Below are positions 1,493-19,177 of a stretch of DNA of 19,177 bases, piece after piece. The DNA comes from a virus (Duplodnaviria; Heunggongvirae; Uroviricota; Caudoviricetes), in IMG/VR virus record IMGVR_UViG_638341196_000003. One strand, written 5' to 3'. The first letter of the stretch is position 1, and the number at the start of each line of letters is the position of its first letter. The notes under the pieces were generated by a model. The model was not told the DNA's origin and searched no databases. It saw only the letters and a program-made list of their open reading frames with translations. Both the position numbers and the translations under genes were made by a program.

Positions 1493-1583
1493 TAGACTGG
1501 CCCCCTGAATCTCCAGACAACCAGTATCACTTAAATAAGTGATAGTCTTAATACTAGTTTTTAGACTAGTCATTGGAGTACAG

Positions 1584-1949
1584 ATGATTGATGTCTTAGG
1601 GCCGGAGAAACGCAGACGGCGTACCACACAGGAAAAGATCGCAATTGTTCAGCAGAGCTTTGAACCGGGGATGACGGTCTCCCTCGTTGCCCGGCAACAT
1701 GGTGTAGCAGCCAGCCAGTTATTTCTCTGGCGTAAGCAATACCAGGAAGGAAGTCTTACTGCTGTGGCCGCCGGAGAACAGGTTGTTCCTGCCTCTGAAC
1801 TTGCTGCCGCCATGAAGCAGATTAAAGAACTCCAGCGCCTGCTCGGCAAGAAAACGATGGAAAATGAACTCCTCAAAGAAGCCGTTGAATATGGACGGGC
1901 AAAAAAGTGGATAGCGCACGCGCCCTTATTGCCCGGGGATGGGGAGTAA
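1584..1949 (+). CDS. insC: IS2 transposase OrfA (InsC)
   Basis: 121-aa product [26 protein letters not shown]... with helix-turn-helix; ATG is the 16th codon of the listed ORF 1539-1949. Confidence 0.9.
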
Positions 1950-2812
1950 GCTTAGTCAGCCGTTGTCTCCGGGTGTCGCGTGCGCAGTTGCACGTCATTC
2001 TCAGACGAACCGATGACTGGATGGATGGCCGCCGCAGTCGTCACACTGATGATACGGATGTGCTTCTCCGTATACACCATGTTATCGGAGAGCTGCCCAC
2101 GTATGGTTATCGTCGGGTATGGGCGCTGCTTCGCAGACAGGCAGAACTTGATGGTATGCCTGCGATCAATGCCAAACGTGTTTACCGGATCATGCGCCAG
2201 AATGCGCTGTTGCTTGAGCGAAAACCTGCTGTACCGCCATCGAAACGGGCACATACAGGCAGAGTGGCCGTGAAAGAAAGCAATCAGCGATGGTGCTCTG
2301 ACGGGTTCGAGTTCTGCTGTGATAACGGAGAGAGACTGCGTGTCACGTTCGCGCTGGACTGCTGTGATCGTGAGGCACTGCACTGGGCGGTGACTACCGG
2401 CGGCTTCAACAGTGAAACAGTACAGGACGTCATGCTGGGAGCGGTGGAACGCCGCTTCGGCAACGATCTTCCGTCGTCTCCAGTGGAGTGGCTGACGGAT
2501 AATGGTTCATGCTACCGGGCTAATGAAACACGCCAGTTCGCCCGGATGTTGGGACTTGAACCGAAGAACACGGCGGTGCGGAGTCCGGAGAGTAACGGAA
2601 TAGCAGAGAGCTTCGTGAAAACGATAAAGCGTGACTACATCAGTATCATGCCCAAACCAGACGGGTTAACGGCAGCAAAGAACCTTGCAGAGGCGTTCGA
2701 GCATTATAACGAATGGCATCCGCATAGTGCGCTGGGTTATCGCTCGCCACGGGAATATCTGCGGCAGCGGGCTTGTAATGGGTTAAGTGATAACAGATGT
2801 CTGGAAATATAG
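1907..2812 (+). CDS. insD: IS2 transposase OrfB (InsD), DDE catalytic domain; normally made as an OrfAB fusion by -1 frameshifting
   Basis: 301-aa ORF overlapping orfA; A6G slippery run (GCAAAAAAGTGG) near 1896-1905; C-terminal [12 protein letters not shown] motif typical of the IS3 family. Confidence 0.9.
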
Positions 2813-2856
2813 GGGCAAATCCACCTGCCTTTTTTCGTTTCTGCGCAAGTTAGCTC

Positions 2857-2898: not shown

Positions 2899-3582
2899 AT
2901 GACTGAATGGCTTAATGCACATTTTGGTGCAGACGCAGCTACCTATCTTAGCTTATTAGTCGGCGTACTGGCACTGTTTGGTATTGGGGGCGGTGTTACA
3001 TATAGAATCAGACAGCAAAACAACATAAAACAGAAGGCAAAGAAAACCGAGGGTGATGTGAACCAGGCCGGGCGGGATATTAATCAGACCACCAACGTTT
3101 ACCACACATCCAATGAATCTACTGAGGACCCTGTAAAAAAAAAGCAAGATGAACATGATCTGAAGATAATCGACCAGATCCTTGAATTGCTGCCTTATGA
3201 GGATACTACTCAATGGGTTGAGCAGAGCTACCTGAGCGGTATACGGCAAGATGTTTGCTTAAACATTGAAAAAGCTGAAAAATTTAGCGGTGAAAAGTAT
3301 CGGTTATTCAATACTGAAGTGAATGGTGCGAAAGACGCTTTTTTGGACGCTATGACCGCATACGTAGATAGTACGCTACCATTTATGAGTGTTGATTACC
3401 CGAACAGAAAGCCAGTGATGCTAAGCCTTCCCCATGACTGGAAGAGTAAGAGTGTTGAATCGGAGGCAAACTTCCGCTTTCATCAGCAAAATGTGCGTGA
3501 AACATCGGGGGGGATGATTGCGCGCTATGAGGATTTTGTCAGGACATTTAAGGCTCATGGATTCATAAGCGATAAACTGTAA
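2899..3582 (+). CDS. Hypothetical membrane-anchored protein (227 aa): one N-terminal transmembrane helix, charged linker, soluble C-terminal domain; non-phage cargo
   Basis: Intact ORF with ATG start; hydrophobic segment YLSLLVGVLALFGIGGGV at residues ~16-33, then a Lys/Glu-rich linker. Own promoter-like region upstream and an intrinsic terminator downstream (rebuilt across the IS10-like insertion). No family recognised. Confidence 0.5.
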   Translation: MTEWLNAHFGADAATYLSLLVGVLALFGIGGGVTYRIRQQNNIKQKAKKTEGDVNQAGRDINQTTNVYHTSNESTEDPVKKKQDEHDLKIIDQILELLPYEDTTQWVEQSYLSGIRQDVCLNIEKAEKFSGEKYRLFNTEVNGAKDAFLDAMTAYVDSTLPFMSVDYPNRKPVMLSLPHDWKSKSVESEANFRFHQQNVRETSGGMIARYEDFVRTFKAHGFISDKL

Positions 3583-3675: not shown

Positions 3676-4976
3676 CTGAGGGATCCCCACAAAATTACTG
3701 CTAATAAACCAGCACCATATTTCGGTAGGTTCTGGACAGATGGTTTAGAACTGTGCTCAGTACTGTTCGTCTTAAAATAAGTGGCGAGTGTCGAAGAACA
3801 TTCTTCGCTAACGTCAGATATGAGATAACCCGCCGGGATTTAATGCTGTTAGCCTGATATTTCAGGTGTAACCCTTTATTTTCAGCGTGATAACCGAGTA
3901 ACCACATTACGATAGTGCTCAACGTTGCCAGCAGACTCAGAACCAGAATTCTTCCTGTTGAACGACTTTTGCTGGCCCGAAGACCAAATCCGAAGCGCCC
4001 GTTCTTTTCATCACGAAAGTTTTGCTCTATCTGCATTCGCCGACTGTATAACTTGATGATTTCTCGCGCTCTGAAGTCATTTGTACTGCTGAAGATCAAC
4101 CAGGCTTCTTTTGCTGATTTGCTCTGTTCTTTGTCTGTTTTGTTTAAACCACTCTGACCTTTCGAACGTTTCTTTTTTCGCCCTTTTGCCGATTTCTTAT
4201 AGGTGTAAAAATGCCCCCGGATGCTTTTTTTCCTTTCTTTAACCAGCCTTCCAGCCTCCATATATTCCGGTGTTTTACATTCAGGGCTATCCGACACTTT
4301 TAACCATCTTTCAGGCGCGTTATCGAGGCAATACTGAACGTTATTTCTGATCCGACCAATAAAATCCCAGCCCAGAGAAGTAATATGGTGAAACCATGCG
4401 CTCTGAAATCCAGCATCCGTGACAATAATAACCCTGGCATCGGGGGGCAGGGATTGAGCAAGGGAATCAAGGAAATCATGTTGTATCAATGGATTATTTT
4501 GTTTTTCAGAAGGAACAACCTTACTCAATAACGGAATGGAACGCCCGTCACACAGAAGGCTGGCACGAAGAACATGATGCTCCTGGGAGGGATAGCCACT
4601 CCAGTCTACGGCTATTACACATAAAGATAACTGCCGTGTCAGCATTGAAGTGATATTCCTGAAAATCATTGGAATATCGCGATGGAGCGCCTCATTACCC
4701 ATGAGGCGATCAATACGTTTGCTCTTATTCTTAACTTGTGCATTACCCGGGAAAAAACGTCCGATACTGGTCAGCGTCAGAGATGCTCCGTTGATTAACG
4801 CCACTGTGGCATCCATCAGGGCATTTTGTCGGTACTGATGAAATGGTGCTAAGGCATCCCGGAAGAAATTCTGACATACTTTATGAACAGGCATAGCAGT
4901 GATCTCATTGAATTGTTGGCACAAATCAGTAGATCACATAATGCTATGTCTGTCTCGTTTTCTGGGAATTCCTCAG
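3676..4976 (-). mobile_element. IS4-family, IS10-like insertion sequence (1301 bp)
   Basis: Imperfect terminal inverted repeats CTGAGGGATCCCCACAAAATT (left) and CTGAGGAATTCCCAGAAAACG (right, reverse complement), 17 of 23 matching, resembling the IS10 end CTGATGAATCCCC. Perfect 9-bp duplication CCCTCCGGG at 3667-3675 and 4977-4985. Confidence 0.7.
3701..4924 (-). CDS. IS4-family (IS10 group-like) DDE transposase, 407 aa
   Basis: Shares landmarks with IS10 transposase as recalled (KRIDRLxGN, VDWS, RAS...GRS, DAGF, IYSxRMQIEQxFRD); stop 25 bp from the left inverted repeat. Confidence 0.85.
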   Translation of the reverse strand: MCQQFNEITAMPVHKVCQNFFRDALAPFHQYRQNALMDATVALINGASLTLTSIGRFFPGNAQVKNKSKRIDRLMGNEALHRDIPMIFRNITSMLTRQLSLCVIAVDWSGYPSQEHHVLRASLLCDGRSIPLLSKVVPSEKQNNPLIQHDFLDSLAQSLPPDARVIIVTDAGFQSAWFHHITSLGWDFIGRIRNNVQYCLDNAPERWLKVSDSPECKTPEYMEAGRLVKERKKSIRGHFYTYKKSAKGRKKKRSKGQSGLNKTDKEQSKSAKEAWLIFSSTNDFRAREIIKLYSRRMQIEQNFRDEKNGRFGFGLRASKSRSTGRILVLSLLATLSTIVMWLLGYHAENKGLHLKYQANSIKSRRVISYLTLAKNVLRHSPLILRRTVLSTVLNHLSRTYRNMVLVY

Positions 4977-5246: not shown

Positions 5247-6032
5247 ATGTACGATTATAGTTTTTTACTTACTCCATCTACAGGATTTGTTAAAGGATTA
5301 TGTGGAGTTTGGTCGAATGATTTCTCTATAAATGATGATTCTGACTCTGATTTAGGGCAAACAGATATTCATTTACTTTCATCTCCTCATTTGAATATCA
5401 TATCCGACCCAAATGAATTGGCTTCCAAGTTAAAAGGTTTGTTGATGCTCATGAACGGCGCACTTAGCGTTCTTTATGGTTTTGAAAGATATCAATCTTT
5501 TGGTCCTCTTTCTATTTCTGGAAGTGAAGGCATTAATTACTCGGAAATATGCGGCTTTAAATCAATGGATGTAACTCAGGTAAACCCCTTTAATTTCCAT
5601 GACATACAGCAACCACACCCTCGCGCTGATAATTTTTCACGATTAATTAATTTATCATCTAAACATGAATCCTTACGTGTTGTTTTAGGTATGTGTGCCT
5701 TAGGTTATGATTGGGTTAATCTTTATCGTTTGTGGGAAACAATTAGAGAATATGTATATGATAAATATGTGAAAGGTATACTAAATTTCCCCGACGCTTA
5801 TAAAGGCAAGAAATATCAGAGAGATAAAGTAATTAGCATGGCTTTTAATATTGATGAAAAGGAAATCAGCAGATTCACGGGCACTGCTAATAGCTTTGAA
5901 CTGTTAGGGTATCTTGCGAGACATGGAAAGGGAAGTTCCGGAGGGATATTAAAAAATCCGATGTCAAGAGTTGACGCAAGCATTTTCGTACACAAAGCAA
6001 CTTACAAATATTGTAAGTTATTTTTGATGTAA
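5247..6032 (+). CDS. Hypothetical protein (261 aa), AT-rich non-phage cargo gene
   Basis: Intact ORF with ATG and an upstream AGAGGGA ribosome-binding site; the gene and its upstream region are visibly AT-rich compared with the flanking tail genes. No transmembrane segment or recognisable motif. Confidence 0.5.
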   Translation: MYDYSFLLTPSTGFVKGLCGVWSNDFSINDDSDSDLGQTDIHLLSSPHLNIISDPNELASKLKGLLMLMNGALSVLYGFERYQSFGPLSISGSEGINYSEICGFKSMDVTQVNPFNFHDIQQPHPRADNFSRLINLSSKHESLRVVLGMCALGYDWVNLYRLWETIREYVYDKYVKGILNFPDAYKGKKYQRDKVISMAFNIDEKEISRFTGTANSFELLGYLARHGKGSSGGILKNPMSRVDASIFVHKATYKYCKLFLM

Positions 6033-6372: not shown

Positions 6373-6380
6373 TGAAGTGG

Positions 6381-8509
<2,129 letters not shown>

Positions 8510-8510
8510 G

Positions 8511-8772
8511 TAGCCTTTTTTAATATTTCATTCTCCATTTCAATGCGTTGTAGCTTTTTCCTCAGCTTACGTATTTCGATTTGTTCTGGTGTTATCGGAG
8601 AGGCTTTTGGTGTTTTGCCCTGACGCTCATCACGCAGTTGTTTGACCCATCTTGTCATTGTGGAAAGGCCAACATCCATAGCTTTGGCGGCATCTGCCAC
8701 CGTGTATTTCTGGTCAACAACCAGTTGAGCGGATTCGCGTTTAAACTCTGCGCTAAAATTTCTTTTTTTCAT
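8511..8772 (-). pseudogene. IS911-like orfA, 5' portion (codons 1-88) cut by IS30; the last 12 codons and stop resume at 7288-7247
   Basis: [56 protein letters not shown]...EILKKAT, then IS30; downstream of IS30 the frame reads [12 protein letters not shown]-stop. Confidence 0.8.
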
Positions 8773-8844
8773 TGGAGCACCTGTGTTGTTCTGAGGCGAG
8801 CATATCACCTCTGTTCAGGTGGCCAAATTCAGTGTGCCACTTCA

Positions 8845-9421
8845 ACTCGACGATCAACGATAGCGGAGACTCAGGTGCAATCTCGGAGCGAATCGCCGTA
8901 AGAGAGAGTCGGAGCTCCTTCAAAGAATCCGAGACTCGTGCTGGATCCTCTTGAGCATATGGCAGATAAAGAGAACTCTTGTCTTCCAATAAATGGATCA
9001 ACCGCAGAGCAATTTTCTCGTCTGGGCGATGCGATAGAAATTGAAACATTAGCCTCTTTCCTCCCTCCAAGCACTCCTTCATTAGTGATTCGTGGTTACG
9101 TTTCCATTTTCGCAAATACTCGGCGGGGTAGCCCATACCGCCATTCTTATCAACTAAATCAGCACAAGCTCCGCACAACCATATAGCATTTTTTATGCTC
9201 TTCCGCTCTGTTTCTGACTGAGACATGTCATAGCGCGGTCCGCCAGGGCTCGCCGCGCAGATATGCGCCGCCTCACCCGTCTTGATAGAAAGATTTTCCG
9301 CCAATTGATCCGGGCCGATTGTTACCCTATGACAAGAGGGATTGCTACAAATATATGTAGCGCGCTCTGCTACCTTACCTACAACGCTTGGAGGAAAGTT
9401 GTGCCTATTTGTCTTGGTCAT
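8845..9421 (-). pseudogene. 5' segment (codons 1-192) of the HNH-like cargo gene interrupted by the IS911-like element
   Basis: ATG at 9421; product carries CSNPSCH...GEAAHICAASPGG...NAIWLCGACADLVD, an HNH-type Cys/His/Asn signature with non-canonical substitutions. The tail of listed ORF 8753-9421 beyond 8845 is read-through into the IS. Confidence 0.6.
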
Positions 9422-9492: not shown

Positions 9493-10645
9493 AATAGCTG
9501 CGCTTAATACCGCTACACTTTTGCCAGTCCATGTTTGCCTCCGGGGAATGGGCTGACGGTTTCCATAAAATGGCGAACTTTTTTCAACAGTTGCCACATT
9601 GAGCGGCACTGATGATTACGCGTTATTGTGTCGTGAAGTGCCTGCCATAGCCGTTCAACATGATTCACCCATGGCGAGTAAACCGGCTGATAAATGACCC
9701 TGAACTTCGGGTTCTCCTTCAGCCAGCTCTGTGTTTCCCGGCTTTTGTGGATAATGTAGTTGTCCACGATCAGCGTGATGGTTTTCGCCCGACGGTATGT
9801 CGCTTTAAGCCGCTTCAGCAGGCTGATGAACAGCGCCGAACTTTTGCTGTTGCCGCCCACATAGCTGACTTTACCTGTCCCGCTGTGCAGCGCTCCGGCC
9901 AGATAATATTTTTCATTCTGTCCCGGCGTGACCACCCGTTTTTGCTGTCCGCGCAGTTGCCAGTCCGCACCGATTTTGGGATGAAGATGGATATCCACTT
10001 CATCTTCATAAAAGACCGGATGCTCTGCGCTGCATTCGTCCAGTGCTTTATGGATTGCTGCCATCTTTTCATCTTTATGCGGGTCACGGATACGCAGAGT
10101 TGGCGCAGCCCTTCGCCACACAATCCCCGCAGACGGCAACCAGCGGCGAACGGTTCCGGCATTTAACTGGCAACCGGTTATCTCATTGATTTTTATTGCC
10201 AGCAGTTCTGTACTCCAGCGTGAACGCTGGTAGACAAAGTCGCCGGGAGAATGTTTTACCAGCTCACGTAACAGTGTGCAGATATGCTCAAACGGCCAGC
10301 GACGGGCACGCCCGGCAGGTAATGATTTCAGTCCCTCAACACCCGACTGCGTGAACCAGTTAATCCAGCGTCCAACAGAGGAACGGGCGCAGCAGAGCGT
10401 TCTGGCAACGTCGCTGACACGGTCGCCCCGGTGCAGCATCAGCATGGCAGTCAGTCTGCGGGCATAATTTTTATCGTGTGTTTTATGGATGGCTTTCTGC
10501 ATCAGGCGTCGTTCGTCACGGGAAATTGGTGCTATGATCGGCATTGCTCAGTCCGGTTGGTGATTTGTTTTGATTTGGCGATTGATCAGATCGCACAATC
10601 CGGGCTAAGTTCCCTCAAAATGATCTACTATTCCGCGCAGCTATT
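9493..10645 (-). mobile_element. IS630 insertion sequence, complete (1153 bp)
   Basis: 343-aa transposase; imperfect terminal inverted repeats (AATAGCTGCGC...); flanking TA duplication at 9491-9492 and 10646-10647; reconstructed target GATCCTAGGTCTG contains CTAG. Confidence 0.9.
9513..10544 (-). CDS. IS630 (Tc1/mariner superfamily) transposase
   Basis: 343-aa product MPIIAPISRDERRLMQKAIHKTHDKNYARRL... matches IS630 transposase from recall. Confidence 0.9.
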   Translation of the reverse strand: MPIIAPISRDERRLMQKAIHKTHDKNYARRLTAMLMLHRGDRVSDVARTLCCARSSVGRWINWFTQSGVEGLKSLPAGRARRWPFEHICTLLRELVKHSPGDFVYQRSRWSTELLAIKINEITGCQLNAGTVRRWLPSAGIVWRRAAPTLRIRDPHKDEKMAAIHKALDECSAEHPVFYEDEVDIHLHPKIGADWQLRGQQKRVVTPGQNEKYYLAGALHSGTGKVSYVGGNSKSSALFISLLKRLKATYRRAKTITLIVDNYIIHKSRETQSWLKENPKFRVIYQPVYSPWVNHVERLWQALHDTITRNHQCRSMWQLLKKVRHFMETVSPFPGGKHGLAKV

Positions 10646-10721
10646 TAGGTCTGACCAGCAACCTATTGATCAAAAAACCAAGATATTAGCTAAAAAAAAT
10701 CAGCATACTTGAGACCAAGCT

Positions 10722-10759
10722 CAATGTCCGCTCCTCGCTCAAAGCAGACTGTCAGATTT
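10722..10759. repeat. Copy 3 of the repeat family, inverted relative to copy 1, about 180 bp upstream of FI
   Basis: 10722-10759 matches the reverse complement of 1043-1080 at 31 of 38 positions by hand alignment. Confidence 0.5.
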
Positions 10760-10819
10760 GATAGCATTTGGGCTATGTAAATTGTCAGGCGGAAAATGAG
10801 TGAGTACAAATCAGGACAG

Positions 10820-10849
10820 GCGGGCGAATTGCCCGCATTTTCTTTATCT
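10820..10849 (+). terminator. Terminator-like hairpin (GCGGGC-GAATT-GCCCGC followed by ATTTTCTTTATCT) upstream of FI
   Basis: Perfect 6-bp GC stem with 5-nt loop and a T-rich tail on the + strand; could insulate the FI late operon from the cargo island. Confidence 0.35.
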
Positions 10850-10941
10850 GTTGTTTCATCCCCTGACCAGCCAGGTCAAATAGCGTCTCATGCTCTGCAC
10901 AACAGAAAATAGTTGCACCCATTAACCACGGAGTTAAACGG

Positions 10942-12132
10942 ATGAGTGACTATCATCACGGCGTGCAGGTGCTGGAGATTAACGACGGCACCCGCGTCAT
11001 TTCCACCGTATCCACGGCCATTGTCGGCATGGTCTGCACGGCCAGCGATGCAGATGCGGAAACCTTCCCCCTCAATAAACCGGTGCTGATTACCAATGTG
11101 CAGAGCGCAATTGCAAAGGCCGGTAAAAAAGGCACGCTGGCGGCGTCGTTACAGGCCATCGCTGACCAGTCAAAACCGGTCACCGTTGTTGTGCGCGTGG
11201 AAGACGGCACCGGCGACGACGAAGAAACGAAGCTCGCGCAGACCGTTTCCAATATCATCGGCACCACCGACGAAAACGGTCAGTACACCGGACTGAAAGC
11301 CCTGCTGGCGGCGGAGTCGGTAACCGGTGTTAAACCGCGCATTCTCGGTGTGCCGGGACTGGATACCAAAGAGGTGGCTGTTGCACTGGCATCAGTCTGT
11401 CAGAAGCTGCGCGCTTTCGGGTATATCAGCGCATGGGGCTGTAAAACCATTTCCGAGGTGAAAGCCTACCGCCAGAATTTCAGCCAGCGTGAGCTGATGG
11501 TCATCTGGCCGGATTTCCTCGCATGGGATACGGTCACCAGTACCACCTCCACCGCGTATGCCACCGCCCGTGCGCTGGGGCTGCGCGCTAAAATCGACCA
11601 GGAGCAGGGCTGGCATAAAACGCTGTCCAACGTCGGGGTGAACGGTGTTACCGGCATCAGCGCGTCCGTATTCTGGGATTTGCAGGAGTCCGGCACCGAT
11701 GCTGACCTGCTTAACGAGTCAGGCGTCACAACGCTGATTCGCCGTGACGGTTTCCGCTTCTGGGGTAACCGTACCTGCTCTGATGACCCGCTGTTCCTCT
11801 TTGAAAACTACACCCGCACCGCGCAGGTGCTGGCCGACACGATGGCTGAGGCGCACATGTGGGCGGTGGACAAGCCCATCACCGCAACGCTGATTCGCGA
11901 CATCGTTGACGGCATCAATGCCAAATTCCGTGAGCTGAAAACAAACGGCTATATCGTGGATGCGACCTGCTGGTTCAGCGAAGAATCCAACGATGCGGAA
12001 ACCCTCAAGGCCGGAAAACTGTATATCGACTACGACTATACACCGGTGCCTCCTCTCGAAAACCTGACCCTGCGCCAGCGTATTACCGATAAATACCAGG
12101 CAAATCTGGTCACCTCGGTTAACAGCAATTAA
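10942..12132 (+). CDS. FI: Contractile tail sheath protein (P2 gpFI-like)
   Basis: 396-aa ORF, same length as P2 FI; position and order match the P2 FI-FII-E-T-U-D cluster. Confidence 0.9.
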   Translation: MSDYHHGVQVLEINDGTRVISTVSTAIVGMVCTASDADAETFPLNKPVLITNVQSAIAKAGKKGTLAASLQAIADQSKPVTVVVRVEDGTGDDEETKLAQTVSNIIGTTDENGQYTGLKALLAAESVTGVKPRILGVPGLDTKEVAVALASVCQKLRAFGYISAWGCKTISEVKAYRQNFSQRELMVIWPDFLAWDTVTSTTSTAYATARALGLRAKIDQEQGWHKTLSNVGVNGVTGISASVFWDLQESGTDADLLNESGVTTLIRRDGFRFWGNRTCSDDPLFLFENYTRTAQVLADTMAEAHMWAVDKPITATLIRDIVDGINAKFRELKTNGYIVDATCWFSEESNDAETLKAGKLYIDYDYTPVPPLENLTLRQRITDKYQANLVTSVNSN

Positions 12133-12144
12133 GGAGCCTGACCG

Positions 12145-12662
12145 ATGGCAATGCCGCGCAAACTCAAGTTAATGAACGTCTTTCTGAACGGCTACAGCTA
12201 TCAGGGCGTTGCAAAGTCCGTCACGCTGCCAAAACTGACCCGTAAACTCGAAAACTATCGCGGTGCGGGGATGAACGGAAGCGCACCGGTAGACCTCGGC
12301 CTTGATGACGATGCGCTGTCAATGGAGTGGTCGCTCGGGGCTTCCCGGATTCGGTTATCTGGGAGCTCTACGCCGCAACCGGCGTGGATGCCGTACCGAT
12401 TCGTTTTGCTGGCTCTTACCAGCGCGACGATACCGGCGAAACGGTGGCCGTCGAGGTGGTCATGCGTGGCCGTCAGAAAGAAATCGACACCGGCGAGGGG
12501 AAACAGGGAGAAGACACCGAGTCGAAAATCTCCGTGGTCTGCACCTATTTCCGGCTGACGATGGACGGTAAGGAGCTGGTCGAAATCGACACCATCAACA
12601 TGATTGAGAAGGTGAACGGTGTCGACCGGCTGGAGCAACACCGCCGCAATATCGGCCTGTGA
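12145..12662 (+). pseudogene. FII: Tail tube protein (P2 gpFII-like), frame disrupted near 12337-12340
   Basis: N-terminal 62 codons in frame 1 (…LSMEWSLG), remainder in the overlapping frame (GFPDSVIWELYAAT…) of listed ORFs 12145-12558 and 12327-12662. The break sits in a G4 run where one more G would restore a ~172-aa protein. Confidence 0.6.
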
Positions 12663-12718
12663 TTTTCATCCGGTCAGCCAGGCTGACCGGTTAACCCTGA
12701 TTCAGAAGTGAGAAAACC

Positions 12719-12994
12719 ATGAACAAAGAAAATGTGATTACCCTGGACAATCCGGTCAAGCGTGGTGAGCAGGTTATCGAACAGGTCACGCTGATGAAAC
12801 CCAATGCCGGGACGCTGCGCGGTGTCAGTCTGGCTGCGGTCGCAAACTCCGAAGTCGATGCACTGATTAAGGTGCTGCCGCGCATGACGGCACCGATGCT
12901 GACCGAGCAGGAAGTCGCCGCGCTGGAACTGCCTGACCTTGTGGCGCTGGCCGGTAAGGTGGTCGGTTTTTTGTCGCCGAACTCGGTGCAGTAA
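12719..12994 (+). CDS. E: Tail assembly chaperone (P2 gpE-like)
   Basis: 91-aa ORF between the tube and tape measure genes; contains the slippery run GGTTTTTTG near its 3' end. Confidence 0.75.
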   Translation: MNKENVITLDNPVKRGEQVIEQVTLMKPNAGTLRGVSLAAVANSEVDALIKVLPRMTAPMLTEQEVAALELPDLVALAGKVVGFLSPNSVQ

Positions 12995-13146
12995 CGTTCC
13001 CGAAAAATCTGTCGGTCGATGAGCTGATGGCGGATGTGGCAGTGATATTTCACTGGCCGCCATCAGAACTGTATCCCATGAGTCTGACCGAACTCATCAC
13101 ATGGCGCGAAAAGGCGCTCCGGCGAAGCGGAAACACGAATGAGTAA
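12719..13146 (+). CDS. Tail assembly chaperone frameshift product (P2 gpE+E'-like) made by programmed -1 frameshift
   Basis: From the T6G run at 12967-12973 the -1 frame stays open to a stop at 13144-13146 (…FFVAELGAVTFPKNLSVDELMADVAVIFHWPPSELYPMSLTELITWREKALRRSGNTNE), overlapping the tape measure start. Confidence 0.55.
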
Positions 13147-15586
13147 CAATGTAAAATTACAGGTATTGCTCAGGGCTGTTGACCAGGCATCCCGCCCGTT
13201 TAAATCCATCCGCACAGCGAGCAAGTCGCTGTCGGGGGATATCCGGGAAACACAAAAATCACTGCGCGAGCTGAACGGTCACGCATCCCGTATTGAGGGA
13301 TTTCGCAAGACCAGTGCACAGCTCGCCGTGACTGGTCATGCACTTGAAAAGGCACGGCAGGAGGCCGAAGCCCTTGCCACACAGTTTAAAAACACCGAAC
13401 GTCCCACCCGTGCTCAGGCGAAAGTGCTGGAATCCGCAAAGCGTGCGGCGGAGGACTTACAGGCGAAATATAACCGCCTGACGGATTCCGTTAAACGCCA
13501 GCAGCGGGAACTGGCCGCTGTGGGAATTAATACCCGCAATCTTGCACATGATGAGCAGGGACTGAAAAACCGTATCAGTGAAACCACCGCACAACTTAAC
13601 CGTCAGCGCGACGCGCTGGCGCGTGTCAGTGCGCAACAGGCAAAACTTAACGCAGTAAAACAGCGTTATCAGGCCGGAAAGGAACTGGCCGGAAATATGG
13701 CCTCAGTAGGCGCTGCCGGTGTGGGGATTGCGGCGGCGGGAACGATGGCCGGAGTTAAGTTGCTGATGCCCGGTTATGAGTTTGCGCAGAAAAACTCAGA
13801 ATTGCAGGCCGTGCTAGGAGTGGCAAAAGACTCCGCCGAAATGGCCGCGCTACGCAAGCAGGCGCGCCAGCTCGGTGACAATACCGCCGCCTCAGCGGAT
13901 GATGCGGCCGGTGCGCAGATTATCATTGCGAAAGCGGGTGGAGATGTTGATGCCATTCAGGCGGCAACGCCGGTCACGCTGAATATGGCGCTGGCGAACC
14001 GCCGCACGATGGAAGAAAACGCCGCCCTGCTGATGGGGATGAAATCCGCCTTTCAGCTTTCAAACGATAAGGTTGCTCATATCGGGGATGTTCTCTCCAT
14101 GACGATGAACAAAACCGCCGCCGATTTTGACGGCATGAGCGATGCGCTGACCTATGCCGCACCTGTGGCAAAAAATGCCGGTGTCAGCATTGAAGAAACC
14201 GCCGCAATGGTCGGGGCACTGCATGATGCAAAAATTACCGGTTCAATGGCGGGGACGGGAAGCCGTGCCGTGTTAAGCCGCCTGCAGGCACCGACGGGAA
14301 AAGCATGGGATGCACTGAAAGAGCTTGGTGTGAAAACCTCAGACAGCAAGGGAAACACCCGGCCAGTATTTACCATTCTGAAAGAAATGCAGGCCAGTTT
14401 TGATAAAAACCGGCTCGGTACTGCCCAGCAGGCTGAATACATGAAAACCATTTTCGGGGAGGAGGCCAGCTCAGCCGCTGCTGTGCTGATGACTGCCGCC
14501 TCAACCGGAAGGCTGGACAAACTGACCGCTGCGTTTAAAGCCTCAGACGGGAAGACCGCGGAGCTGGTAAATATCATGCAGGACAACCTCGGCGGTGACT
14601 TTAAGGAGTTTCAGTCCGCTTATGAGGCGGTAGGGACTGACCTGTTTGACCAGCAGGAAGGCGCGCTGCGTAAGCTCACGCAGACGGCCACAAAGTATGT
14701 GTTAAAACTCGACGGCTGGATACAGAAAAACAAATCACTGGCGTCAACTATCGGCCTCATTGCCGGTGGCGCACTGGTGCTGACTGGCATCATCGGTGCC
14801 ATTGGTCTTGTAGCCTGGCCGGTTATCACCGGCATCAATGCCATTATCGCGGCAGCAGGCGCAATGGGGGCAATCTTCACGACGGTTGGCAGTGCTGTTA
14901 TGACGGCCATCGGGGCGATTAGCTGGCCGGTTGTGGCCGTGGTGGCCGCCATTGTCGCCGGGGCGTTGCTTATCCGTAAATACTGGGAGCCTGTCAGCGT
15001 ATTCTTCGGCGGTGTGGTTGAAGGGCTGAAAGCGGCATTTGCGCCGGTGGGGGAACTGTTCACGCCACTTAAGCCGGTGTTTGACTGGCTGGGTGAAAAG
15101 TTACAGGCCGCGTGGCAGTGGTTTAAAAACCTGATTGCACCGGTCAAAGCCACCCAGGACACCCTGAACCGTTGCCGTGACACGGGCGTCATGTTCGGGC
15201 AGGCACTGGCTGACGCGCTGATGCTGCCGCTTAATGCGTTCAACAAACTGCGCAGCGGTATTGACTGGGTACTGGAAAAACTCGGCGTCATCAACAAAGA
15301 GTCAGACACACTTGACCAGACCGCCGCCAGAACTCATGCCGCCACGTATGGCACCGGTGGTTATATTCCGGCGACCAGCTCTTATGCAGGCTATCAGGCT
15401 TATCAGCCGGTCACGGCACCGGCTGGCCGCTCTTATGTGGACCAGAGTAAAAACGAATATCACATCAGCCTGACCGGTGGTACTGCGCCGGGGACACAGC
15501 TTGACCGCCAGTTACAGGATGCGCTCGAAAAATACGAGCGGGATAAACGAGCGCGCGCCCGTGCCAGCATGATGCATGACGGTTAA
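13139..15586 (+). CDS. T: Tail tape measure protein (P2 gpT-like)
   Basis: 815-aa ORF, Ala/Gly-rich with predicted coiled-coil and hydrophobic segments; same length and position as P2 T. Confidence 0.9.
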   Translation: MSNNVKLQVLLRAVDQASRPFKSIRTASKSLSGDIRETQKSLRELNGHASRIEGFRKTSAQLAVTGHALEKARQEAEALATQFKNTERPTRAQAKVLESAKRAAEDLQAKYNRLTDSVKRQQRELAAVGINTRNLAHDEQGLKNRISETTAQLNRQRDALARVSAQQAKLNAVKQRYQAGKELAGNMASVGAAGVGIAAAGTMAGVKLLMPGYEFAQKNSELQAVLGVAKDSAEMAALRKQARQLGDNTAASADDAAGAQIIIAKAGGDVDAIQAATPVTLNMALANRRTMEENAALLMGMKSAFQLSNDKVAHIGDVLSMTMNKTAADFDGMSDALTYAAPVAKNAGVSIEETAAMVGALHDAKITGSMAGTGSRAVLSRLQAPTGKAWDALKELGVKTSDSKGNTRPVFTILKEMQASFDKNRLGTAQQAEYMKTIFGEEASSAAAVLMTAASTGRLDKLTAAFKASDGKTAELVNIMQDNLGGDFKEFQSAYEAVGTDLFDQQEGALRKLTQTATKYVLKLDGWIQKNKSLASTIGLIAGGALVLTGIIGAIGLVAWPVITGINAIIAAAGAMGAIFTTVGSAVMTAIGAISWPVVAVVAAIVAGALLIRKYWEPVSVFFGGVVEGLKAAFAPVGELFTPLKPVFDWLGEKLQAAWQWFKNLIAPVKATQDTLNRCRDTGVMFGQALADALMLPLNAFNKLRSGIDWVLEKLGVINKESDTLDQTAARTHAATYGTGGYIPATSSYAGYQAYQPVTAPAGRSYVDQSKNEYHISLTGGTAPGTQLDRQLQDALEKYERDKRARARASMMHDG

Positions 15587-15600
15587 GGAGGTGACGAAAA

Positions 15601-16080
15601 ATGATGCTCGCGTTAGGTATGTTTGTTTTTATGCGCCAGACGCTGCCACATCAGACCATGCAGCGTGAATCAGATTATCGCTGGCCGTCAAATTCCCGTA
15701 TCGGTAAACGGGATGCCTATCAGTTTCTCGGTGTAGGTGAGGAGAACATCACACTTGCCGGTGTGCTTTATCCCGAACTGACTGGCGGAAAGCTGACGAT
15801 GACCACGCTCAGACTGATGGCAGAGGAAGGCCGGGCGTGGCCGTTGCTGGATGGCACCGGCATGATTTACGACATGTATGTCATCAGCAAGGTGAGTGAA
15901 ACAGGGAGTATTTTCTTTGCAGACGGCACACCCCGGAAAATTGATTTTACGCTGTCGCTCACCCGCGTTGATGAGTCACTGGCCGCGCTTTATGGCGATA
16001 TCGGTAAACAGGCGGAATCGCTCATCGGTAAGGCTGGCAGTATGGCGACTAAATTCACGGGTATGACGGGGGCGGGATAA
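15601..16080 (+). CDS. U: Tail protein (P2 gpU-like)
   Basis: 159-aa ORF after T; stop overlaps the next start (TAATG) as in P2 U-D. Confidence 0.8.
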   Translation: MMLALGMFVFMRQTLPHQTMQRESDYRWPSNSRIGKRDAYQFLGVGEENITLAGVLYPELTGGKLTMTTLRLMAEEGRAWPLLDGTGMIYDMYVISKVSETGSIFFADGTPRKIDFTLSLTRVDESLAALYGDIGKQAESLIGKAGSMATKFTGMTGAG

Positions 16081-17243
16081 TGCTGGATGCGCTGACATTT
16101 GATGCAGGCAGTACGCTGACGCCGGATTACATGCTGATGCTCGACAGCAGGGATATTACCGGCAATATCAGCGACCGTCTGATGAGCATGACCCTGACGG
16201 ATAACCGGGGCTTTGAGGCTGACCAGCTTGATATTGAACTGAACGATGCCGACGGGCAGGTCGGGCTGCCGGTTCGTGGCGCTGTCCTGACGGTGTATAT
16301 CGGCTGGAAAGGTTTTGCCCTGGTATGCAAAGGGAAATTTACCGTTGATGAGGTTGAACACCGGGGCGCACCGGATGTGGTCACCATCCGCGCCCGGAGT
16401 GCAGATTTTCGCGGGACGCTCAATTCCCGCCGGGAAGGCTCATGGCATGACACCACGCTCGGTGCGATTGTTGAGGCGATAGCCTCCCGGAACAGGCTGG
16501 AAGCCAGTGTCGCTCCGTCACTGGCCGGAATTAAAATTCCGCACATCGACCAGTCGCAGGAGTCTGATGCGAAATTCCTGACCCGCCTTGCTGAACGCAA
16601 CGGCGGTGAGGTGTCGGTAAAAATGGGAAAACTGCTGTTTCTCAAAGCGGGGCAGGGGGTGACGGCCAGCGGTAAAAAAATCCCGCAGATTACCATCACC
16701 CGCAGCGACGGCGACCGTCATCATTTTGCGATTGCTGACCGTGGAGCCTACACCGGCGTAATGGCAAAGTGGTTACACACCAAAGACCCGAAGCCACAAA
16801 AGCAGAAGATAAAACTGAAACGCAAAAAGAAAGAGAAACACCTGCGCGCACCGGAGCACCCGAAAGCGAAACCGGTCAGGCAGAAGAAAGCGCCTAAAGT
16901 ACCGGAAGCGCGCGAAGGTGAATACATGGCCGGTGAGGCTGATAACGTTTTTGCCCTGACTACGGTATATGCCACAAAAGCGCAGGCCATGCGCGCCGCT
17001 CAGGCGAAGTGGGATAAGCTGCAACGGGGCGTGGCGGAGTTCTCCATCAGTCTGGCTACTGGTCGGGCAGATATTTACACGGAAACGCCGGTCAAAGTGT
17101 CAGGTTTTAAGCGCGTCATAGACGAGCAGGACTGGACAATCACTAAGGTGACACACTTTCTGAATAATAGCGGCTTCACGACGTCCTTAGAGCTTGAGGT
17201 CAGGCTTTCTGATGTGGAGTACGAAACAGAAGGTGATGAGTAA
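16080..17243 (+). CDS. D: Tail protein D (P2 gpD-like)
   Basis: 387-aa ORF with a Lys-rich internal segment (KPQKQKIKLKRKKKEK), same length and position as P2 D. Confidence 0.85.
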   Translation: MLDALTFDAGSTLTPDYMLMLDSRDITGNISDRLMSMTLTDNRGFEADQLDIELNDADGQVGLPVRGAVLTVYIGWKGFALVCKGKFTVDEVEHRGAPDVVTIRARSADFRGTLNSRREGSWHDTTLGAIVEAIASRNRLEASVAPSLAGIKIPHIDQSQESDAKFLTRLAERNGGEVSVKMGKLLFLKAGQGVTASGKKIPQITITRSDGDRHHFAIADRGAYTGVMAKWLHTKDPKPQKQKIKLKRKKKEKHLRAPEHPKAKPVRQKKAPKVPEAREGEYMAGEADNVFALTTVYATKAQAMRAAQAKWDKLQRGVAEFSISLATGRADIYTETPVKVSGFKRVIDEQDWTITKVTHFLNNSGFTTSLELEVRLSDVEYETEGDE

Positions 17244-17324
17244 TGTTTTGTTTTTATCTGTTTGTTTTATAAGGGTAAATTAACTAAAATGGCACCATCA
17301 ACAAAACCGGAAGAGGTGCTCGCG

Positions 17325-17543
17325 ATGTTTCATTGTCCTTTATGCCAGCATGCCGCACATGCGCGTACAAGCCGCTATATCACTGACACGACAAAAGAGC
17401 GTTATCACCAGTGTCAGAACGTGAATTGCAGTGCCACGTTCATCACTTATGAGTCGGTACAGCGATACATCGTGAAGCCGGGAGAAGTCCACGCCGTAAG
17501 GCCGCACCCGTTGCCATCAGGGCAGCAAATTATGTGGATGTAA
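17325..17543 (+). CDS. ogr: Late-gene transcription activator Ogr (zinc-finger protein)
   Basis: 72-aa product MFHCPLCQHAAHARTSRYITDTTKERYHQCQNVNCSATF... with the Cys4 motif; begins at the third Met of listed ORF 17262-17543. Confidence 0.85.
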   Translation: MFHCPLCQHAAHARTSRYITDTTKERYHQCQNVNCSATFITYESVQRYIVKPGEVHAVRPHPLPSGQQIMWM

Positions 17544-17556
17544 TTACAAACAGAAA

Positions 17557-17582
17557 GCCCCTCAGTCGAGGGGCTTTTTTGT
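17557..17582 (+). terminator. Intrinsic terminator after ogr (GCCCCTC-AGTC-GAGGGGC followed by TTTTTTGT)
   Basis: Perfect 7-bp GC-rich stem, 4-nt loop, T6 tract 14 nt after the ogr stop. Confidence 0.6.
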
Positions 17583-17644
17583 CGATGTGGTCAATGTGTG
17601 GACGTGACCAGAAATAAATCCTTTTATTTCAATTTATTGTACGT

Positions 17645-17671
17645 AAAAAATAAGCCCGTGTAAGGGAGATT
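17645..17671. other. Probable prophage right attachment-site core (AAAAAATAAGCCCGTGTAAGGGAGATT) overlapping the cyaR 3' end
   Basis: The 27-nt string matches the P2 att core as I recall it and sits between the ogr terminator and the body of cyaR; recollection only, not verified. Confidence 0.45.
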
Positions 17672-17815: not shown

Positions 17816-19177
17816 TCACTTACCGTGGGGGTTACGCGTGGTTTCCCCGGAGAAATTACGCATTAGCAGCGCGTAATTTAGCTCAAGATCCTGCGGGACC
17901 GGGAGCCACACAGTATAACCATCGCCTGGTGCGACCGGCATAGCTTCGCCTTTGGCGTTTTCCATGTGCTCAAGGGTAAAGTTAATGTTGCCTTGCGGCG
18001 TCATCAGCTCAAGACTGTCGCCAACGGAGAATTTATTTTTCACCGCTACCGCTGCGAGGTCCCCCTTGCGCTCACCGGTAAACTCACCAACAAACTGCTG
18101 GCGGTCAGAAACTGAATAACCGTATTCGTAGTTCTGATAATCGTCGTGAGTATGACGACGCAGGAAACCTTCGGTATAGCCACGATGCGCCAGACCTTCC
18201 AGAGTTTCCAGCAGGCTGGTATCGAACGGTTTTCCCGCAGCGGCGTCATCGATAGCTTTGCGGTAAACCTGTGCGGTGCGTGCGCAATAGTAGAAAGATT
18301 TGGTACGACCTTCGATTTTCAGCGAATGCACGCCCATTTTGGTCAGGCGTTCTACATGGGCGATGGCGCGCAGATCTTTCGAGTTCATGATGTAAGTGCC
18401 GTGCTCATCTTCAAACGCGGTCATATACTCGCCCGGACGCTGGGCCTCTTCGATCATAAACACTTTGTCGGTTGGCGCGCCGATACCCAGCGTCGGCTCA
18501 ACATTTTGCACCGGAATCGGCTCGTACTTGTGTACGATGTTGCCAACGTCATCTTCTTTCCCTTCCTGGACGTTGTACTCCCAGCGGCAGGCGTTGGTGC
18601 AGGTACCCTGGTTCGGATCGCGCTTGTTGATATAGCCAGAGAGCAGGCAGCGACCGGAGTAGGCCATGCACAGTGCGCCGTGAACGAAGATCTCGATCTC
18701 CATATCCGGCACCTGATTGCGGATCTCTTCAATCTCTTCAAGCGACAGCTCGCGAGAGAGGATCACGCGGGTCAGGCCCATTTGCTGCCAGAATTTCACC
18801 GTCGCCCAGTTTACGGCGTTAGCCTGCACCGAGAGGTGGATCGGCATTTCAGGGAAGTGCTCACGCACCAGCATAATCAGCCCTGGATCGGACATAATCA
18901 GCGCATCCGGCCCCATTTCCACCACCGGTTTCAGGTCACGGATAAAGGTTTTCAGCTTGGCGTTGTGCGGTGCAATGTTGACCACGACATAAAACTTTTT
19001 CCCCAGCGCGTGGGCTTCATTGATGCCGAGCTGAAGATTTTCGTGGTTGAATTCGTTGTTGCGCACACGTAGGGAGTAACGCGGCTGGCCCGCATAAACA
19101 GCATCTGCGCCATAAGCGAAAGCGTAACGCATATTTTTCAGCGTTCCCGCCGGGGAAAGGAGTTCCGGTTTAAACAT
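17816..19177 (-). CDS. yegQ: Peptidase U32-family protein YegQ (TrhP, tRNA hydroxylation)
   Basis: 453-aa ORF MFKPELLSPAGTLKNMRYAFAYGADAVYAGQPRYSLRVRNNEF... with conserved Cys residues; start codon at the window edge (19175-19177). Confidence 0.9.
   Translation of the reverse strand: MFKPELLSPAGTLKNMRYAFAYGADAVYAGQPRYSLRVRNNEFNHENLQLGINEAHALGKKFYVVVNIAPHNAKLKTFIRDLKPVVEMGPDALIMSDPGLIMLVREHFPEMPIHLSVQANAVNWATVKFWQQMGLTRVILSRELSLEEIEEIRNQVPDMEIEIFVHGALCMAYSGRCLLSGYINKRDPNQGTCTNACRWEYNVQEGKEDDVGNIVHKYEPIPVQNVEPTLGIGAPTDKVFMIEEAQRPGEYMTAFEDEHGTYIMNSKDLRAIAHVERLTKMGVHSLKIEGRTKSFYYCARTAQVYRKAIDDAAAGKPFDTSLLETLEGLAHRGYTEGFLRRHTHDDYQNYEYGYSVSDRQQFVGEFTGERKGDLAAVAVKNKFSVGDSLELMTPQGNINFTLEHMENAKGEAMPVAPGDGYTVWLPVPQDLELNYALLMRNFSGETTRNPHGK

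Follow-up and report, generated by a model that had tools for sequence, protein, structure and literature searches.

Why is the tail tube gene FII of a P2-like prophage divided between two overlapping open reading frames (ORFs)? The gene is located in a 19,177-nt stretch of DNA (IMG/VR record IMGVR_UViG_638341196_000003), referred to in its full length as the window. The host chromosome belongs to Shigella, in the clade of S. dysenteriae 1012 and S. boydii 965-58, and the prophage is a P2-like (Peduovirus) remnant beside yegQ/trhP. The initial annotation, made from the sequence of the window, left two options for the split. Either the prophage is decaying and the gene has been inactivated by a real mutation, or the sequence contains a homopolymer error. 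A third option is that the two-ORF arrangement is itself functional.

A single missing base divides the FII gene

Read directly, positions 12331-12345 are TCGCTCGGGGCTTCC, in which a run of G (12337-12340) is followed by C (12341). The FII gene (12145-12662, plus strand) is 518 nt long, as compared to 519 nt in P2 (AF063097.1) and phage pro483. An alignment with the FII genes of these two phages, as the initial annotation had proposed, placed one 1-nt gap at the run of four G residues (12337-12340, plus strand). No other indel is present in the gene or, in the alignment with P2, elsewhere in the coding sequence of the F operon. Since the break is a difference from homologues and not a statistical pattern, a chance model is inapplicable.

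The two ORFs, both on the plus strand, overlap in different frames. The upstream ORF (12145-12558, ATG start) encodes 137 aa, of which residues 1-65 are native gpFII and the other 72 are out of frame. The downstream ORF (12327-12662, GTG start) encodes 111 aa, corresponding to the C-terminal two thirds of gpFII without its first 64 residues. It is without a spaced ribosome-binding site, since the sole GGAG nearby, at 12324-12327, overlaps the GTG start codon. Insertion of one base after 12340 restores an ORF of 519 nt with a 172-aa product that is 100% identical to P2 gpFII, including EWSLGGFPDSVIW. The coordinates, the pair of ORFs and the expected peptide in the initial annotation were thus all correct. 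Its claim that the site requires five G residues was right in that a base is missing and the frame is split, but two intact alleles are common and five G is just one of them: P2 and pro483 read CTCGGTGGCTTC at the same site, that is GGT-GGC rather than GGG-GGC. We refer to the intact alleles, GGGGG and GGTGG, as G5 and GGTGG, and to the run in the window as G4.

The 137-aa ORF matched the Pfam profile PF04985 (Phage_tube) with E = 1.8e-18, covering profile positions 1-61 of 165 only, and the same profile was also listed for the 111-aa ORF. This match, the identity of the repaired product to P2 gpFII and the location between the sheath gene FI and the chaperone gene E all agree with the name FII that had been given to the gene. 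A single uninterrupted ORF of about 172 aa, as expected of a functional member of the PF04985 family, is lacking because the 1-nt deletion splits the gene. Judged from its sequence, FII is here a pseudogene of the P2 gpFII/PF04985 family and not a functional member.

Independent assemblies of the remnant share the deletion

Contigs of the same remnant were fetched via the exact 111-aa product and the exact FI protein, and the fetched loci are denoted by L numbers. The N-terminus of the 111-aa product, MVARGFPD, is possible only with the deletion, so that this product traces the G4 allele. It is on record for 135 contigs, for example as "major tail tube protein" of Shigella boydii 965-58, while the exact FI protein of the window carries the name Shigella dysenteriae in the records. 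The 137-aa upstream product, looked up in the same exact manner, gave no match. Evidently, the 111-aa ORF is the only one that gene callers retain, and the allele is therefore traceable through that product only. A 31-mer of the G4 allele had no match among the GTDB species representatives.

All 10 other assemblies of the remnant beside yegQ/trhP that were sampled, from S. dysenteriae and S. boydii records, contained G4. These are the WGS assembly of S. dysenteriae 1012 (AAMJ02, AAMJ02000002.1; L017), S. boydii 965-58 (AKNA01, AKNA01000058.1; L005), CP027027.1 (L006 and L018), UYIS01 (UYIS01000021.1; L007), AMJQ01 (L019), ABSSWT01 (L022), the Logan short-read assemblies of runs ERR5982220 and SRR13615173 (L020 and L021) and an IMG/VR prophage contig (L047). 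The FII haplotype was identical to that of the window in nine of them, and L019 combined the same G4 with two substitutions. Three loci (L017, L020 and L022) were 100% identical to the window across 4.5-7.2 kb. The contigs L020-L022 start at window positions 10622-10650, at the edge of an IS630-family element, which is typical of short-read contigs, and 110 of the 149 index blocks for the exact FI protein of the lineage had a longest contig of 20-50 kb. The IS content differed among the assemblies: two IS insertions were absent from L005, and an IS30-family element was inverted in L006 and L007.

A homopolymer miscall would not recur across differing assembly methods, which argues that the deletion is real, and its presence in assemblies with differing IS content indicates that the allele is older than the divergence of the strains. 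From this concordance among the assemblies of the lineage, we conclude that the FII deletion is very probably a true and vertically inherited mutation. If the missing base were instead a homopolymer or compression artefact in the assembly of the window, and FII intact in the strain, the artefact would have to have been reproduced in ten further assemblies, independently assembled short-read sets among them, and none of the sampled lineage members carried an intact allele. The site does invite such errors, as the G-run lies within a very stable, G+C-rich hairpin region prone to Sanger compressions and long-read homopolymer errors; several other G4 records also come from assemblies rich in split genes (L003, L008 and L012), and in L011 the FII gene bears a further G-run deletion. 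An artefact should not be reproducible across independent assemblies and technologies, and we regard this explanation as extremely improbable.

Of the two options in the initial annotation, the inactivating mutation in a decaying prophage is therefore supported, both by G4 in the 10 other assemblies and by the five IS elements in the prophage, while the sequencing error can be dismissed for this window. More generally, when reads are lacking, agreement among independent public assemblies can serve to distinguish true homopolymer indels from sequencing errors.

The G4 allele outside the lineage

We counted the alleles at the FII site in larger sets of sequences. Exact-match records of RefSeq complete E. 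coli genomes contained G5 in 734 cases, GGTGG in 652 and G4 in one, and G4 was present in 1 of the 1537 matching records of complete E. coli genomes. This sole copy, in strain 30EVA1 (NZ_CP138423.1), is marked as frameshifted by RefSeq. None of the 71 matching records of isolated phages had G4. Among the first 120 IMG/VR matches to an allele-neutral pattern there were 65 G5, 54 GGTGG and one G4, and among the first 120 metagenome matches to the same pattern 59 G5, 61 GGTGG and no G4. The G4 allele was thus found in 1 of these 240 unselected contigs, and that one, L047, is the same Shigella remnant. The initial annotation had held that a conserved two-ORF arrangement in homologues would speak against its reading; the arrangement does exist elsewhere, but as a rare, recurrent breakage (1/1537, 0/71 and 1/240) rather than as a conserved feature.

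A contraction from G5 to G4 was also seen on at least six to seven other FII haplotypes (L003, L004 and L008-L013; FII at locus positions 9819-10336, or 8838-9355 in L013). The prophages concerned occupy three attachment sites, namely yegQ, fieF-pfkA and pflB-focA-ycaO. With alleles called by regular expression, six of these haplotypes could each be paired with an intact twin that differs by 0-1 mismatches and is itself one of the fetched loci; all of the twins had G5 and none GGTGG, indicating that contraction from G5 to G4 recurs. The G4 calls in L003, L008 and L012, from assemblies full of split genes, and in L011, with its second G-run deletion, are probably long-read errors. In L004 and L010 the G4 allele is located in otherwise intact prophages, of which L004 is a metagenome scaffold with seven similar places. 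A G4 call at this FII site in a long-read assembly deserves suspicion.

It is conceivable, but in our view highly unlikely, that the G5 run is a true mutational hot spot that repeatedly and independently disarms P2-like prophages, or a selected target for such disarming. If it were, selection at the level of the host could keep the defence cargo and immunity of the prophage while blocking virion production; alternatively, the run could act as a low-frequency reversible switch.

Origin of the deletion

The deletion may have arisen from either of the two common intact alleles. A distance-based assignment from the FII haplotypes alone was ambiguous: the two nearest intact haplotypes, at 5 mismatches from that of the window (L002 and L014), have GGTGG, whereas the next five, at 6 mismatches, have G5. 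No intact twin near-identical to the Shigella FII haplotype was present among the fetched loci. The flanking context partly resolved the ambiguity, since the relatives that share the cargo, pF or tail-fibre context of the window (L143, L016, L023 and L212) all have G5, which makes a contraction from G5 to G4 the likely origin.

The alternative is a real deletion that removed the T of a P2-type GGTGGC, with no homopolymer slippage. It is suggested by the sequences of P2 and pro483, by the similar frequencies of GGTGG and G5 (652 and 734 records) and by the T in the two closest intact haplotypes. Apart from the context-sharing relatives, it is opposed by the six other G4 haplotypes with near-identical intact twins, all derived from G5 and none from T, and by the intact haplotypes within 7 mismatches of the window, of which 8 have G5 and 3 have T. 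We consider a loss of the T rather unlikely, and an origin by contraction of G5 likely. With GGTGGC in P2 itself, these sequence comparisons make a G5 ancestor probable and not certain.

Replication slippage is the most likely mechanism, by which the G5 of GGG-GGC was shortened to G4. With G5 restored, the run would be the only homopolymer of at least 5 bases in FII, and it lies in a hairpin-rich stretch. Elsewhere in the operon, G5 runs are present at 13234, 14866, 15049, 16068 and 16655. Strong folding may favour polymerase slippage and sequencing errors alike.

The folded stretch and the possibility of recoding

An 8-bp G+C-rich hairpin (12343-12364, plus strand) is located directly 3' of the run. 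The segment 12341-12440 has a minimum free energy of -47.2 kcal/mol (z = -5.0), the 4th in rank among 621 segments of 100 nt in the F operon, and overlapping segments hold ranks 2 and 3 of the 621. The strongly folded stretch 12343-12440, including the hairpin, is also conserved in intact FII alleles.

The structure raises the question of whether the two-ORF arrangement is functional, either by -1 ribosomal frameshifting or transcriptional slippage at a hairpin-aided G-run, or as a reversible phase-variation switch. The hairpin begins 3 nt past the run, a -1 shift after Gly65 would exactly recreate the wild-type sequence, and the same contraction recurs on at least 7 haplotypes at 3 integration sites. 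Programmed frameshifting was nevertheless rejected, for lack of both conservation of the two ORFs and a slippery heptamer. The two-ORF form is absent from the 71 isolated phages, and its single copy among the 1537 records from complete E. coli genomes is the RefSeq pseudogene. The zero-frame codons UCG CUC GGG GCU do not allow tandem re-pairing in the -1 frame: CTC-GGG-GCT is not an X-XXY-YYZ heptamer, and a slipped Gly tRNA would sit on CGG. As for the downstream RNA structure, the hairpin cluster is strong but lies only 3 nt past the run and is identical in intact alleles, in which a shift would be unwanted. The tail tube protein is moreover a major structural protein that is needed in hundreds of copies.

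Phase variation fits no better. The tracts of phase-variable loci are typically at least 7 bases long, with ON and OFF lengths in one lineage, whereas the run here is 4-5 G and the lineage members sampled (the window and 10 others) are "off" in 11 of 11 cases, with no "on" revertant. By what is established for such tracts, four G residues fall far short of the length needed for transcriptional slippage or efficient phase variation. Altogether, we find a functional two-ORF arrangement extremely improbable, and retain the reading of an inherited inactivating deletion. Spontaneous -1 shifting at GGG-G might occur at a very low level and would recreate the wild-type protein.

The F operon and the prophage end

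Positions 10727-17671, which extend from the pF promoter region up to the attP core, are collinear with the P2 F operon and 96.5% identical to it. On the plus strand, FI (tail sheath, 10942-12132) encodes 396 aa, of which 389 are identical to P2 gpFI. Downstream of FII follow E (12719-12994; 91 aa, 90 identical to P2), T (tape measure, 13139-15586; 815 aa, 803 identical to P2 gpT), U (15601-16080; 159 aa, 155 identical), D (16080-17243; 387 aa, 380 identical) and the late-gene activator ogr (17325-17543; all 72 aa identical to P2 Ogr). The lengths of FI, E, T, U, D and ogr are exactly those of P2. The T6G slippery site of the known -1 frameshift in E/E' is also present (12967-12973, plus strand), with the E' frame open from 12973 to about 13146.

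The right prophage end is marked by the attR core (17645-17671, plus strand), up to which the sequence is collinear with P2. It adjoins yegQ/trhP (17816-19177, minus strand), as annotated in the E. coli relatives. We take the yegQ-side site to be the classical P2 locI site, at which E. coli K-12 presumably keeps a D'-ogrK remnant.

The pF late-promoter region (10849-10918, plus strand) aligns with the activator-binding site and transcription start of P2. The pF/activator-site region is about 82% identical to P2, with a 3-nt gap inside the P2 Ogr-binding site. We considered damage to pF by the IS630 insertion or by this 3-nt difference and rejected it, since L023 and L212, two loci outside the Shigella remnant, match positions 10727-10945 with 100% identity. 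By its sequence, pF is here a common promoter variant and not a damaged one.

IS elements and the cargo region

Upstream of FI there are a tail-fibre fragment, gene G and a variable cargo region, and five IS elements are located between gene G and FI. An IS3-family (IS2-like) element (1493-2819, plus strand) is absent from L005. A further IS with a 407-aa DDE_Tnp_1 transposase (3701-4924, minus strand) is absent from the version in E. coli cM2a. A second IS3-family element (6373-8844, minus strand), also absent from L005, truncates a cargo gene and has an IS30-family element of 1221 bp (7289-8509) nested inside. An IS630-family transposase of 343 aa with DDE_3 and HTH domains (9513-10544, minus strand) separates the cargo genes from pF and FI. 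The IS30-family element occupies the same site in the opposite orientation in CP027027.1 and UYIS01 as compared to the window, L017 and L019, and the alignments of the two orientations overlap by 26 bp at each end, which corresponds to the terminal inverted repeats of the element. The difference could be due to inversion in place, independent re-insertion or misassembly.

The cargo genes, at the position of fun(Z) in P2 between G and FI, encode hypothetical proteins of 227 aa (2899-3582) and 261 aa (5247-6032), neither of which had a Pfam match, and a DUF6650 protein (8753-9421). The latter is cut by the IS3-family insertion to 222 aa, whereas L005 and E. coli cM2a have a version of 250 aa. 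Different cargo occupies the same position in other prophages: 30EVA1 has DarT and a macro-domain protein there, and L011 an SduA_C protein. This pattern suggests that the G-FI region is a variable slot, probably for anti-phage cargo.

Consequences of the deletion

Translation from the normal start would produce the 65 native residues followed by 72 out-of-frame residues up to the stop at 12558, a truncated product without about 107 residues of the tube fold. With such a product the tail tube would not be expected to polymerise, so that there would be no functional contractile tail and no infectious particle. FII is annotated in P2 as "essential tail protein; tail tube", and by analogy with P2 genetics no tails should be assembled without the tube protein. 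All other parts of the operon (pF, FI, E/E', T, U, D and ogr) are still full length, which suggests that the frameshift is a fairly recent step of decay. The same prophage has also taken up five IS elements.

Decay of this sort is ordinary for prophages and already known in kind. Frameshifted pseudogenes in defective, IS-riddled P2-like prophages are routine decay in Shigella genomes. In public records the 111-aa fragment is already among the called products, or copies equivalent to this one are labelled as frameshifted pseudogenes. A literature search for the P2-like remnant of Shigella or the FII frameshift returned nothing. In annotation, FII should be marked as a frameshifted pseudogene, with neither ORF treated as a gene, and the prophage classed as defective. 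The contraction from G5 to G4, present in all sampled members, is usable as a marker of the S. dysenteriae / S. boydii clade.

Comparison with known systems

The closest characterized relative is P2, in which FII is located at 18855-19373 of AF063097.1. The window shares with P2 the order FI-FII-E/E'-T-U-D-ogr-att, FII DNA of 97.3% identity and a repaired FII protein of 100% identity. It differs by the loss of one base at codon 65/66, where P2 reads GGTGGC, and by the resulting split into 137 and 111 aa. The T6G site of the programmed -1 frameshift in P2 E/E' belongs to the same operon, 630 nt downstream of the break in FII, and the window has kept it intact. It is a T-run recoding signal conserved in all homologues, and the FII break shares none of these features.

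The same remnant in AAMJ02000002.1, AKNA01000058.1, CP027027.1 and UYIS01000021.1 shares the integration site, cargo, IS630 insertion, FII haplotype and G4 of the window at 99.9-100% identity, while IS content and orientation vary among the strains. In CP027027.1, T is also called 63 aa short (752 as compared to 815 aa; 11001-13259 of L006) with an extra 1-nt gap relative to the window, which reflects either further decay in the lineage or an assembly error of the record.

Two E. coli prophages at yegQ resemble the remnant in different ways. Strain 30EVA1 (NZ_CP138423.1) has G4 at the same site, but its FII haplotype differs by 12 mismatches, FI is also frameshifted, and the prophage is otherwise complete with its DarT/macro-domain cargo. 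E. coli cM2a (NZ_CM176588.1, 1665964-1680540; L016) shares the attachment site (yegR-yegQ), the cargo of 227-aa, 261-aa and DUF6650 proteins and the tail operon. Unlike the window, it has an intact FII with G5 that differs at 15 sites, and no IS elements; everything to the left of the tail-fibre end is missing, and an internal deletion joins U and D, both of which are partly lost. The combination of an intact FII and other losses in cM2a suggests that the same prophage has decayed there along a different path.
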